Part shown: positions 46,596 to 49,992 of the stretch, piece by piece
How the letters are laid out: every line of letters starts with the position of its first letter
Position numbering within the stretch: the stretch's first letter is position 1
The notes under the pieces: generated by a model
Told to the model about the DNA's origin: nothing
What the model saw: only the letters and a program-made list of their open reading frames with translations
Databases searched by the model: none
Assembly: GCA_044070495.1 (NCBI GenBank)
Contig: JBIPSI010000032.1
Coordinates: 1 to 60,252, forward strand
Source: Spirulina sp.
GTDB lineage: Bacteria > Cyanobacteriota > Cyanobacteriia > Phormidesmidales > Phormidesmidaceae
DNA length: 60,252 nucleotides
Direction: 5' to 3'
Position numbers and translations under genes: made by a program

Positions 46596-47441
46596 CTAAC
46601 GGCTCGCTTGTTCCCCAGGCTTCCATTGCCGCTTCGCGATGAAGGCACCACCGACCACCAAAAGGCTCAGAACCATGCCCGGTTCAGGCACAGACTCAGG
46701 TTCATTAAATCCCGTGGTACCCGCCCTAAAGGTGTGGTTGTCGGTCTCAAAACCACCGCCACCCTGTTGGGAGATCACAATTCGATTGAATAGGTCAGAA
46801 CTGGAATCGGCAAAGAAGTTAAAGTAGGCATTGTACTCCTTCCCATTGCCGATGGTGCCATAGGTTCTGAGAACAGAGGCTACGTTGGTCGTTCTCTCAG
46901 AGTCTGCAAAGGTGCGATTGTCGTTGTAGTAGACAAATCGCTGAACCAATGAATCACCGTTAAAAAAGGAAAACTCATTGCCGTCGTGGGCTGATCCCCA
47001 GTTGATGCCAAAGTAATTATGGGTGGCATCCAAATCAATTTGTACGTTTGTTCCTTTAAAGGATGTCAAATAGGAAGATTGGTTATCCCTTGGAGATTCA
47101 AAGGTGGGTGCCCATTGATCTTTGATAATTCTGGCATTATTACTAGTAGCACCGACATAGGAATACCGAATGCCTGGATTGGCTACGGTTTGGTTATTGG
47201 AATCAACAACGGTAAAATCACCATTGTTGAAATTCACCGTATTAAAGCCCTCATCCCAAGCATAAATAGAGTAGGCTCCTTGGTTGGTTTCGCCATTAAA
47301 CCCAGCGATACCTTTCATGGAAGCCTGGGTGGCACTTTCGTTGCCCAGGGTAAAAGAAATGGCTTGGGCCGGTTGAGTTAAGCTAGCAAGGGTGGCAATA
47401 CTGACTAAGGTGCCTAAGGTATAGGCTCGATTAAGGTTCAT
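46596..47441 (-). CDS. PEP-CTERM exosortase-sorted surface protein
   Basis: Signal peptide ending AQA, 'YFGINWGS', 'FETDNH', C-terminal VPEP + TM + basic tail. Confidence 0.88.
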   Translation of the reverse strand: MNLNRAYTLGTLVSIATLASLTQPAQAISFTLGNESATQASMKGIAGFNGETNQGAYSIYAWDEGFNTVNFNNGDFTVVDSNNQTVANPGIRYSYVGATSNNARIIKDQWAPTFESPRDNQSSYLTSFKGTNVQIDLDATHNYFGINWGSAHDGNEFSFFNGDSLVQRFVYYNDNRTFADSERTTNVASVLRTYGTIGNGKEYNAYFNFFADSSSDLFNRIVISQQGGGGFETDNHTFRAGTTGFNEPESVPEPGMVLSLLVVGGAFIAKRQWKPGEQASR

Positions 47442-47683: not shown

Positions 47684-48070
47684 TTAGGAACCTTGGGTCA
47701 GGTAGGCTCGCCAGCCGCCAAATTCCGAAATTTCCCGCTGCCCTTCGCAGAGGATGGGTTCCCCCAGCACCCCCAACACCGTTTCCCCATTGCTGAGGGT
47801 GACTTTGCCGATGGACAACCCTGGCGGTTCTTGCAACAACACCTGCACCAAGCCAGCAGCGGGAATTTGCCACACCTCTAGGGCTACCGCCACCCCGCCC
47901 TCGGAAACTCTCACCATGGCCGGATGCTGATCGTGAATGGACCACAGCCGATAGGTGGGCGTGGTTGTGGCTTCATACAAAAACTCAGCCCCCGCCTGAA
48001 TCAGGTTGGGGTTGAGTTCTAGGCCTCGCATGAGGGTACCGTTTACGGCAAGTTTAAGGGCCTCGGCCAT
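47684..48070 (-). CDS. Allophanate hydrolase C-domain / gamma-glutamylcyclotransferase-like protein
   Basis: 'LAVNGTLMRGLELN', 'PPGLSIGKVTL', 'EISEFGGWRAYL'. Confidence 0.8.
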   Translation of the reverse strand: MAEALKLAVNGTLMRGLELNPNLIQAGAEFLYEATTTPTYRLWSIHDQHPAMVRVSEGGVAVALEVWQIPAAGLVQVLLQEPPGLSIGKVTLSNGETVLGVLGEPILCEGQREISEFGGWRAYLTQGS

Positions 48071-48509
48071 GGGGTGAGAAAAGACGCGTCGCTTCCCATC
48101 TTCGCTGATTTACGACGGGATGCAACCCTGAGGCTCCCCACGGACAGAGGGCATGGATTTGATGCAAACCCCTCAGTCAATTACACAGTCCCTGAAGTTC
48201 TCACCCTAAAGCCCTGGCCCCATAGGGACTACCGCTTATACAACGAGCGTATCAAAGCCGTCTTTAGTCGGCTTCGGCAGACTTTGGCAATAAGCTAGGG
48301 AGTTCACTCCCTGGCTTACTGACACAACGCCGGAAAGCCTTGGACGTTGAGTCCAAGGCTCAAATCCCCTCTCCTGGGATGGAGAGGGGACTGGGGGGAG
48401 ATGGCTTCCTGGAGGGTGGGCAAAGCACCGAATGAGAGTAACCCTTAACCGAAAGATAAACTTTGGTATCATTCCCTAGCAGTGGTTCTGGAAAGCGCTA
48501 TTGTAATAA

Positions 48510-49175
48510 CAAGAGGTGAGGCAAACCTCCCTCCCAAATCGAATAGTTCAGTCCCCGTTAAATAGGAGGTTGTTATCTCGTTAACGTCTGAATCTATCTC
48601 GCACATCAAGCAGCCTTTCTCCTTAGTGGCTGATATTTCCTCCCCTTACTCCTAGAGAGCTCTGCATTAGATACCCAGAGACGCAACAACCCACTACGAC
48701 GGTATCGACCCATCTCTACTTAGTCACATCCTATTTGAGGAAATGCTTCACAAATCCTTGGAAAGGCTGCTGTTATCCTCCTTCTTTACGGAAGAGATAG
48801 ACCGTTTTTCGTTCATGGTTGAAGAGTTCAGTCTTCTTGTTGTCAGGAGGTTGTTACTTCGGATACATCTCAATTTCTTGCTTCAACATCAGCCCTGCCC
48901 TACTTCATGCTACTGATGTTTCTACCTCTGATCTGATAGAGAGCACTGCATTAGATACCTAGAAACGCAACAATACTCTACACGACGGTATCGACCCATC
49001 TCTAAAGTATCAGTCTCTATGTGAGAAACCATTCCTAGTAGCTGGTCTGGGTACTGCTGATAGCCTCAGTGGTTCACTTTCATTATTTCGATTTCGTTCA
49101 ACTCATTTTCGTTTGATTTCTGTCTAGTTTGTAGAATAGTCCCGGCTCTGGTTTCAGGGTTGGGGCTATTCTTTT
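48510..49175 (+). ncRNA. Candidate long structured ncRNA made of two tandem ~280-nt rod-like modules
   Basis: -10 tattgt (48499-48504), 5' hairpin, two diverged repeat units with compensatory stems, strong terminator, no ORF >=60 aa. Confidence 0.65.
49133..49175 (+). terminator. Intrinsic terminator
   Basis: agaatagtcccggctctg-gttt-cagggttggggctattct followed by a T tract. Confidence 0.8.
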
Positions 49176-49335
49176 AATGTGAGATAAACCGCTGCTGAGT
49201 TCTAGATCCCCCCAGGGCCTCGCGGTCTAAGGTTCATGCCGTACCCCCTTGGTAAGGGGGCGGGGGGGATCATCGCCATGTGCTTAACCTGAGTGAAATT
49301 CGCTATACATTTAAGGCAGTTTTTACGCTGCTGCC

Positions 49336-49992
49336 ATGCCGATCATTTTGCCACTGTTTGCCAAGGCCTTTCTCACCCTCTTTGTGGTGATTGATCCGGT
49401 GGGGCTGGTTCCCCTCTATCTGGCCCTCGTCCATGATCGGTCGGAGGAGGAGCAGTCTCAAATTGCCATTCGTGCCGTGGTGGTCTCGGCGGTTATTCTG
49501 CTGGCTTTTGGGCTAACGGGGGCCTACGTTCTGCACAATCTGGGCATTAGCCTGCAAGCCTTTCAAATTGCGGCGGGGGTGTTGCTGTTCAAAATTGCCC
49601 TAGACATGATTTTCGTTCACCAAGAGCGCGAAACCCAGGCCGAAGCCAAGGAGGCCGAGTCTCGCCAGGATGTGAGCGTGTTTCCCCTAGCGATTCCGCT
49701 GATTGCTGGCCCTGGTAGTTTGGCGAGTATTTTGGTGCTGTCGCGGGAGGCCACCAACTATTACCTGGGGCTGAGCGTGGTCTTGGCGGCGGCGGCCATC
49801 GTGATTTTGCTGTGCTATCTATTTTTGCTGTTGTCTCGCCCCCTGGCCAAACTCCTCGGACAAATTGGTATCAACGTGGTTACCCGTGTGCTGGGGGTGC
49901 TGCTGGCGGCCCTGGCGGTGCAGTATATGCTAGACGGCCTGCTAACGCTGCTGCAACTGCCCCCCGCCCAAGCCTTTGGGTTGGATGGTTGA
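49336..49992 (+). CDS. MarC-family membrane protein
   Basis: 'LFVVIDPVG', 'FPLAIPLIAGPG', 'TRVLGVLLAALAVQ'. Confidence 0.92.
   Translation: MPIILPLFAKAFLTLFVVIDPVGLVPLYLALVHDRSEEEQSQIAIRAVVVSAVILLAFGLTGAYVLHNLGISLQAFQIAAGVLLFKIALDMIFVHQERETQAEAKEAESRQDVSVFPLAIPLIAGPGSLASILVLSREATNYYLGLSVVLAAAAIVILLCYLFLLLSRPLAKLLGQIGINVVTRVLGVLLAALAVQYMLDGLLTLLQLPPAQAFGLDG

Follow-up and report, generated by a model that had tools for sequence, protein, structure and literature searches.

Organization of the locus

The window analysed here, a stretch of 60,252 nt from Spirulina sp., contains an ORF-free transcription unit on its forward strand (positions 48499-49176) within which two units of about 280 nt, diverged in sequence, stand in tandem. 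A promoter, with its -10 box at 48499, and a terminator at 49133-49176 bracket both units as one RNA, which comprises the following features together with its upstream region:

48457..48471 (+), promoter-upstream motif TAAACTTTGGTATCA, conserved, located 27 nt before the -10 box
48499..48504 (+), -10 box TATTGT; relatives carry TAnnnT-like hexamers at the aligned position
48513..48529 (+), 5' terminal hairpin GAGGT/ACCTC, as read in the sequence
48541..48601 (+), 5' domain of unit 1, made of the blocks best conserved in the family
48582..48772 (+), match of unit 1 to the covariance model R1 (171.3 bits, E 9e-40)
48773..48820 (+), inter-unit linker that carries a small hairpin, CTTC..GAAG; RNA contigs cross it
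48821..48881 (+), 5' domain of unit 2, with GTTCAG at 48826-48831 and AGGAGGT at 48845-48851
48863..49059 (+), match of unit 2 to R1 (133.3 bits, E 3e-30)
49060..49132 (+), T-rich 3' tail, with RNA contigs ending at 49074, 49118 and 49124
49133..49176 (+), intrinsic terminator, an 18-pair stem (49133-49172) followed by a T run

A preliminary description of this DNA had proposed that a -10 box, a 5' hairpin and a strong terminator enclose two homologous tandem modules of about 280 nt that are free of ORFs of at least 60 aa, and each of these readings is borne out. The sequence reads as proposed at the -10 box and the hairpin, the stem and T run of the terminator are present, and the largest ORF touching 48499-49175 encodes 57 aa. 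The duplication itself is evident from direct repeats lying 280-286 nt apart (45 nt at 87%, 47 nt at 77%, 30 nt at 77% and 13 nt at 92% identity) and from a pairwise alignment of the two units with 79% column identity at an offset of about 281 nt. Transcription would start near 48511. Relatives retain a hairpin at the position of 48513-48529, its sequence and length being variable, and no promoter-like or strong terminator-like site was found in the linker (48773-48820).

A protein-coding role for the unit finds no support in its homologues. Among 61 homologous sequences there is no conserved reading frame, the median longest closed ORF is 24 aa, and in none of the 61 is any forward frame free of stops. 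Most gap runs have lengths that three does not divide (592, 209 and 195 runs for lengths of 1, 2 and 0 modulo 3, respectively), and on the minus strand the MGRYRR ORFs of the two units diverge in frame after a 2-nt indel. A small-protein or dual-function mRNA is accordingly not supported, and a coding reading from the ATC that follows AGGAGGT was likewise rejected, its frame and stop differing between clades.

Scanning the entire window against Rfam 15 gave no match at the gathering score. A permissive scan of 48300-49350 returned four matches (E 0.57-9.3), none of which falls on the RNA body: they sit on the terminator or on a hairpin outside the RNA. The latter is a perfect G+C-rich hairpin, CCCCTCTCC..GGAGAGGGG, at 48363-48392, upstream of the promoter, and it is the source of the weak Rfam matches there (Pab91, 20 bits).

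Two genes lie upstream on the reverse strand, one (46596-47441) encoding a 281-aa protein without a Pfam family, the C-terminal end of which we take to be PEP-CTERM-like, and the other (47684-48070) a protein of 128 aa with a match to the allophanate hydrolase C-terminal domain. The stretch that separates the terminator from the MarC-family gene contains an inverted repeat at 49201-49270, GATCCCCCC ... GGGGGGGATC, which encloses approximately 50 nt and is possibly a palindromic repeat element of small size.

Expression of the locus

Expression of the locus is well supported. RNA-flagged sequencing runs of nine studies contain parts of the stretch, and four runs from four studies were compared with positions 47900-49800 as contigs assembled from small metatranscriptomes. 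The contigs start at 48520, 48524 and 48526 and end at 49074, 49118 and 49124, and within 47900-49800 no contig from these four studies covers the flanking genes. The unit had been described as self-contained and transcribed, in line with the confinement of these RNA contigs to 48520-49124. A contig of 597 nt (depth 103) and another of 569 nt each span both units and, therefore, molecules crossing the unit junction exist. Depth reaches 1701 in a contig of 168 nt that lies on the first half of unit 1, although contig depth is only a rough measure of abundance. The contigs show 88-99% likeness, which indicates that some of them derive from close relatives; strand, exact ends and processing are beyond the reach of such contigs.

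Secondary structure and covariation

Each unit consists of a 5' domain, the loop of which presents AGGAGGU, and, downstream of it, a rod of about 165-190 nt composed of five to seven stacked helices. In unit 1, the 5' helix pairs GTTCAG (48546-48551) with CTGAAT (48588-48593) and encloses the loop AGGAGGT (48564-48570) together with a small hairpin, TGTTA-TCTCGT-TAACG (48571-48586). This GTTCAG/CTGAAT pairing is near-invariant in 29 sequences, with GTTCAA/TTGAA variants in the loci L203 and L208. The 5' domain of unit 2 has a degenerate 3' block, ATACATCTCAAT in place of TAACGTCTGAAT, which introduces one helix mismatch and is seen in six second units of the Nodosilinea subclade; given this degenerate block, unit 2 may be the less active of the pair. 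A candidate pseudoknot, in which ATCGA on the upstream side of the 5' helix would pair with a TCGAT hairpin loop, was discarded, since G-to-A changes on its 5' side are uncompensated.

The rod helices, all on the forward strand, are as follows:

48609-48619/48761-48771 (+), unit 1, rod helix H1
48636-48642/48737-48743 (+), unit 1, rod helix H3
48656-48659/48714-48717 (+), unit 1, rod helix H4
48663-48664/48711-48712 (+), unit 1, rod helix H4'
48670-48675/48701-48706 (+), unit 1, rod helix H5
48887-48899/49049-49061 (+), unit 2, rod helix H1
48918-48923/49024-49029 (+), unit 2, rod helix H3
48940-48943/49000-49003 (+), unit 2, rod helix H4
48954-48959/48987-48992 (+), unit 2, rod helix H5

Between H3 and H4 the rod opens into an internal loop of 17/20 nt, the sequence of which is poorly conserved.

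Two alignments were used to evaluate this fold. In a genus-level alignment of 29 first units, 15 of 42 predicted pairs carry compensatory changes. For wider comparison, we built the covariance model R1 (193 positions, 38 pairs), its structure written by hand from 42 units of less than 92% identity; R1 derives from window-type units only and begins at TAACGTCTGAA, so that it covers the rod rather than the 5' domain. Across 61 R1-aligned homologues, 90.6% of cells pair, and shifting the partner by one to three columns leaves 37-51%; changes on both sides occur in 31 of the 38 pairs, compared with 12-18 in the slid controls, and the covariation score is 0.365 versus at most 0.113. None of 500 shuffles reached any of the covariation measures. 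This alignment had been fitted to the structure and so favours it, but the counts obtained with MAFFT alone agree. The earlier proposal that the modules have diverged in their stem sequences yet retain pairing, which was to be examined by covariation among homologues, is thus upheld by these counts, and a covariation-backed fold is supported, one that may be new to the literature.

At the level of individual helices the outcome is mixed. Covariation agrees with the proposed helices AGCAGCCTTTC/GAAAGGCTGCT (48609/48761), TTTCCTC/GAGGAAA and GATACC/GGTATC. The helix proposed as tagaga/tctcta is off by two in register: A-U to G-C exchanges place AGAG (48656-48659) opposite CTCT (48714-48717). The proposed outer helix AGGAGG/CCTCCT is not conserved, most relatives and distant copies being without CCTCC; read by eye, this motif follows the rod in three of six aligned two-unit genomes.

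With regard to strand, whole-transcript folding did not tell the two orientations apart (z -2.0 for the forward and -1.3 for the reverse strand). The forward assignment stands instead on G-U pairs, which are compatible with that strand only, and on the terminator and the promoter.

Distribution, copy number and duplication history

Of 36 other genomes in the genus, 33 carry the element according to blastn; none of 24 genomes from other families does, and the window's own genome has no second blastn copy. Within the genus it occupies a single syntenic locus, most relatives carrying one unit. In the course of a motif scan of the genome collection, which is noisy, at least 118 loci were recorded, of which an nhmmer profile confirmed 50 of those listed, including loci in Nodosilinea, Halomicronema, Leptolyngbya sp. 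PCC 6406, Stenomitos frigidus and Oscillatoria sp. CS-180; the other 68 listed loci were left unconfirmed by nhmmer, and most of these are labelled non-cyanobacteria.

The covariance model reaches considerably further. Within the order, R1 matches 112 of 151 genomes, representing 17 of 18 genera and all 48 genomes of the genus, at 1-17 copies per genome and with tandem arrays in several; within the class, matches were obtained in 49 of 151 genomes and 37 of 81 genera. Homologues beyond the genus, for which a sequence search had been suggested, thus came to light with R1 and not with blastn, the matches of which stayed within the genus. The window's own genome has three R1 copies, the third being a diverged one at C2:100379-100562 (-). 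Rfam models gave no match at the RNA positions of 13 related loci. As to the extremes of copy number, genome G097 has 17 R1 matches, and arrays of three or four members spaced by roughly 200-850 nt lie at G107:C12:51439-53081, G152:C346:5792-6415 and G249:C114:6609-7968.

In the distant copies L202-L208, the sequence ..GCUGUUG just after the R1 match is followed directly by UUGUUUUAAA, and because the two abut, the rod closing helix and the U run may together act as the terminator; if so, the RNA of these distant copies may be about 250-270 nt long. The Nodosilinea copies have instead an extra tail and a separate terminator.

In a tree of 61 rods, the eight second units form one clade (support 100/98) and the first units of the same eight genomes another (98/93), with matching inner branching. 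Such unit-wise clades with matching branching indicate one old duplication, after which both copies were kept. Hence, the tree points to a pair that arose once, in the ancestor of the Nodosilinea subclade, and in which both copies keep the fold; the R1 score of unit 2 is still 133 bits.

Multiple copies, up to 17 in some genomes, and the occurrence of tandem arrays could also suggest a miniature mobile element or a functionless repeat, the inverted ends of which give the rod. We regard this as extremely unlikely in view of the compensatory changes in 31 of 38 pairs, the dedicated promoter and terminator, the single syntenic locus in the genus, the specific and apparently high expression, and the presence of only three diverged copies in the window's genome.

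Relationship to PmgR1/Ncr0700

The preliminary description had put forward a candidate novel RNA and suggested a comparison with PmgR1/Ncr0700, among others. Ncr0700 of Synechocystis 6803 is 251 nt long, with its sequence printed in the supplement of a review (PMC6596454), and this printed RNA starts 2-3 nt before its 5' hairpin. R1 matches loci of the canonical PmgR1 type over the full length of the model, namely L196 in the window's own genome (E 2.8e-13) and loci in G049 (2.1e-16), G257 (7.9e-16) and G210 (1.6e-15). The diverged copies L196, L204, L205 and L206 in turn have about five colinear blocks of roughly 8-22 nt in common with the 251-nt Ncr0700. After the shared 5' hairpin, these blocks follow in the same order: GCTTC.CTGGCAGAT..AACAGCC; AGAGGTAAAA..GCTGTTT; AATCTGTCTCGT; ACAACACCCAAAC; and GGGAG.TAGGCA. 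This last step is a by-eye comparison with the printed sequence, and R1 forms the bridge between window and canonical types. The combination of R1 matches to canonical loci and blocks that those loci share with Ncr0700 identifies the family as Ncr0700/PmgR1, and the family membership is well supported by these sequence comparisons. We therefore consider it likely that the locus is one transcription unit of two tandem paralogous copies of a PmgR1-like sRNA.

It follows that the RNA belongs to a known, named family, and the proposal of a novel class falls. A class of its own, with no link to described RNAs, might have been read into the absence of Rfam matches for the window and for the RNA positions of the 13 related loci; R1 and the blocks common with Ncr0700 tie the family to canonical PmgR1-type loci, leaving such a class very unlikely and largely refuted. 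PmgR1 itself is read as absent from Rfam: the authors of a 2026 survey of 202 genomes built their own PmgR1 model from a published alignment, their sRNAs being otherwise limited to Rfam. Of the earlier interpretation, an expressed structured ncRNA of two homologous rod modules stands, and its novelty as a class does not.

The canonical PmgR1-type gene of the window's genome (L196) lies at G000:C2:100379-100613 (-); the genes on either side encode a cytosine/purine permease-like protein and an alpha/beta hydrolase, and about 1.2 kb away there is a tRNA gene. The canonical 5'-domain pattern occurs exactly once in 58 of 401 genomes of the class (36 of 169 genera) and never in a reversed control, and it adjoins an R1 rod match in G000 and 16 other genomes.

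Window and canonical types have the same general architecture, -10 box and upstream motif at a 27-nt spacing, and PmgR1 resembles the window units as an RNA of about 250 nt with a 5' hairpin, the common block order and rod, its own promoter and a free-standing gene. PmgR1 is very abundant (PMC6596454), to which the contig depth at the window's locus may correspond, and it has no Rfam family. The window units are nonetheless paralogues, with the orthologue-like copy on contig C2, and they are fused into a two-unit transcript with an extra 3' tail and terminator. Their 5' domains also differ: that of the window units reads AGTTCAGTCC..AGGAGGT..hairpin..TAACGTCTGAATCTATCTCG and pairs GTTCAG with CTGAAT, whereas that of PmgR1 reads CTGGCAGAT..AACAGCC..AGAGGTAAAA..GCTGTT..AATCTGTCTCG and the canonical type pairs AACAGC with GCTGTT. 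The 5' helices of the two types did not reduce to one structure.

Motifs resembling AACTTTnGTnTCA occur at the same upstream position in 12 of 22 printed copies. Such a motif was noted at the window's locus and at L074, L077, L185, L186, L198, L200, L201, L203, L204, L208 and L196, of which L204 and L196 are canonical. In L204 the same 27 nt separate the motif from the TATTGT box. The motif crosses families and is found at paralogue and canonical genes alike; it is probably the site of a common regulator. Readings of the motif as an NtcA-type or Pho-box-type site, based on consensus sequences, were rejected in that they fit this sequence only and not its relatives.

Neighbouring genes and a possible cis-acting role

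In 14 of 20 loci of the canonical type, a gene for a 255-aa protein follows directly on the same strand, and in L205 its ATG lies 33 nt past the rod. These observations would fit a cis-acting leader, or 'actuaton', that controls the downstream gene. At the window's locus, however, the MarC-family gene is set apart from the RNA by 160 nt and a strong terminator, and the contigs stop before it; moreover, the neighbours of window-type copies vary, many single-unit loci of the genus being divergent from a 195-aa gene that we take to be leuD, and others having unrelated genes beside them. A cis-acting leader is consequently a highly improbable explanation.

The 255-aa gene was located at L204:2039-2806, L205:1735-2505 and L206:665-1432 and in loci L212-L227, while the copy of the window's own genome, at G000:C13:139550-140311 (-), is unlinked to the canonical PmgR1-type gene. 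Neither Pfam nor NCBIfam has a family that matches the protein. Its homologues number 1751, and among the 120 listed of these all source names are 'hypothetical'. A glutamine riboswitch (RF01739, 52.5 bits) was seen in another genome at L208:253-334 (-), about 1.2 kb from a family member.

Comparison with other abundant RNAs

The preliminary description had set the RNA apart from 6S RNA, RNase P RNA, tmRNA and SRP RNA. The Rfam models agree: RNase P RNA, SRP RNA and tmRNA each match elsewhere in the genome above the cut-off and none at the locus, and a genuine 6S RNA lies at C5:176834-177017 (96.5 bits). 6S RNA (RF00013) and mycobacterial Ms1 nevertheless invite comparison, as abundant, rod-like RNAs with internal loops that accumulate as growth slows. 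With its length of about 165-190 nt and the 17/20-nt loop that separates H3 from H4, the rod could mimic an open promoter and sequester RNA polymerase; the apparently high abundance in RNA contigs would be in keeping with this, as would the accumulation of PmgR1 in darkness and stationary phase (PMC6596454). Against such a 6S-like or Ms1-like function, RF00013 gives no match at the locus even at E 10, a separate 6S gene is present, the internal-loop sequence is poorly conserved, and the window RNA has an additional 5' domain. We judge this function improbable.

Multi-copy sRNA families are known in cyanobacteria, Yfr2 being one of them, and NsiR1 and Yfr2 RNAs, at about 60-90 nt, are much shorter than the window RNA. 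Their sequences are unrelated to it and the Rfam scan of the window was without match, the likeness lying in NsiR1 arrays of paralogous sRNA genes, sometimes arranged head to tail (PMC6596454). A closer parallel in length is the most abundant ncRNA of Trichodesmium erythraeum IMS101, a cyanobacterial RNA of about 260 nt in tandem repeats that is extremely abundant (PMC4143802). It is encoded in a 7-fold array with near-identical repeats of 736-973 bp and, per its authors, has no GenBank similarity (Pfreundt et al. 2014, PMC4143802); this RNA and the PmgR1 family are likened here by description only.

Mode of action and significance

PmgR1/Ncr0700 of Synechocystis sp. PCC 6803 was reportedly described by de Porcellinis and colleagues in 2016 as having a role in photomixotrophic growth and glycogen control. 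By analogy, the RNA described here would, like PmgR1, be abundant and act in trans to regulate carbon and energy metabolism. Our best guess at its mode of action is the binding of an abundant partner, which might be a protein, or the 30S subunit via the Shine-Dalgarno-like AGGAGGU; extra copies would then raise the dose. Darkness, stationary phase and heat all bring PmgR1 to very high levels (PMC6596454), and the RNA is strongly induced in a crhR helicase mutant (PMC6693541). It acts downstream of PmgA, which, like its induction and phenotype, is known for Synechocystis only (PMC6596454, PMC8682795, PMC6693541). A hint of partner binding comes from a Synechocystis gradient, where the PmgR1 maximum falls in fractions 8-9, near those of RNase P RNA (9-10) and tmRNA, and short RNAs peak in fractions 3-6 (PMC12475003).

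The RNA could alternatively be a classical trans-acting base-pairing sRNA, in which a conserved single strand pairs with mRNAs and the rod only stabilises the molecule. Indeed, PmgR1 is treated as an sRNA regulator (PMC8682795, PMC6166021), RNase E processing has been proposed to produce or remove its putative seed (PMC8682795), and the window RNA offers candidate seeds in the AGGAGGU loop and in the C/U-rich strand UUUCCUC, which is highly conserved and anti-Shine-Dalgarno-like. UUUCCUC, however, pairs with GAGGAAA inside the covarying rod, conservation covers about 250 nt and not a single seed, and the direct targets of PmgR1 are given as unknown in one of these reports (PMC8682795). We regard seed pairing as the less likely mode. 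Since the scaffold is large and covarying and conservation is concentrated in loops and helix flanks, binding of a partner, that is, a sponge, is our first choice for the mode of action and seed pairing the second, both being guesses at this stage.

A more far-reaching model can be drawn from the same features, though as a whole it is rather improbable. The PmgR1 superfamily would be a ribonucleoprotein scaffold or ribosome decoy in place of a seed-pairing RNA, its loop AGGAGGU (AGAGGU in the canonical type) would mimic a Shine-Dalgarno sequence and hold 30S or another abundant partner at low energy, copy number, from tandem dimers to arrays of 17 genes, would set the dose, and the 260-nt array RNA of Trichodesmium would be a member.

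Within the literature on cyanobacterial sRNAs that was compared, a set to which the 2016 PmgR1 paper and the supplement of the 2026 survey do not belong, we found no description of the fold, the paralogue type, the arrays, the shared promoter motif or the neighbour-gene link; these elements, tandem dimers included, may therefore be new. PmgR1 ranks among the most abundant sRNAs of cyanobacteria and its phenotype is clear; for this family the locus provides a covariation-supported fold and a covariance model with matches in 37 of the 81 genera sampled. Diverged paralogues, tandem dimers and arrays of as many as 17 copies occur in filamentous cyanobacteria, and the promoter motif common to paralogues and canonical gene points to common regulation. 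The invariant loops are clear targets for mutagenesis, and the frequent pairing of the canonical gene with a highly conserved, uncharacterised protein of 255 aa represents a new lead.
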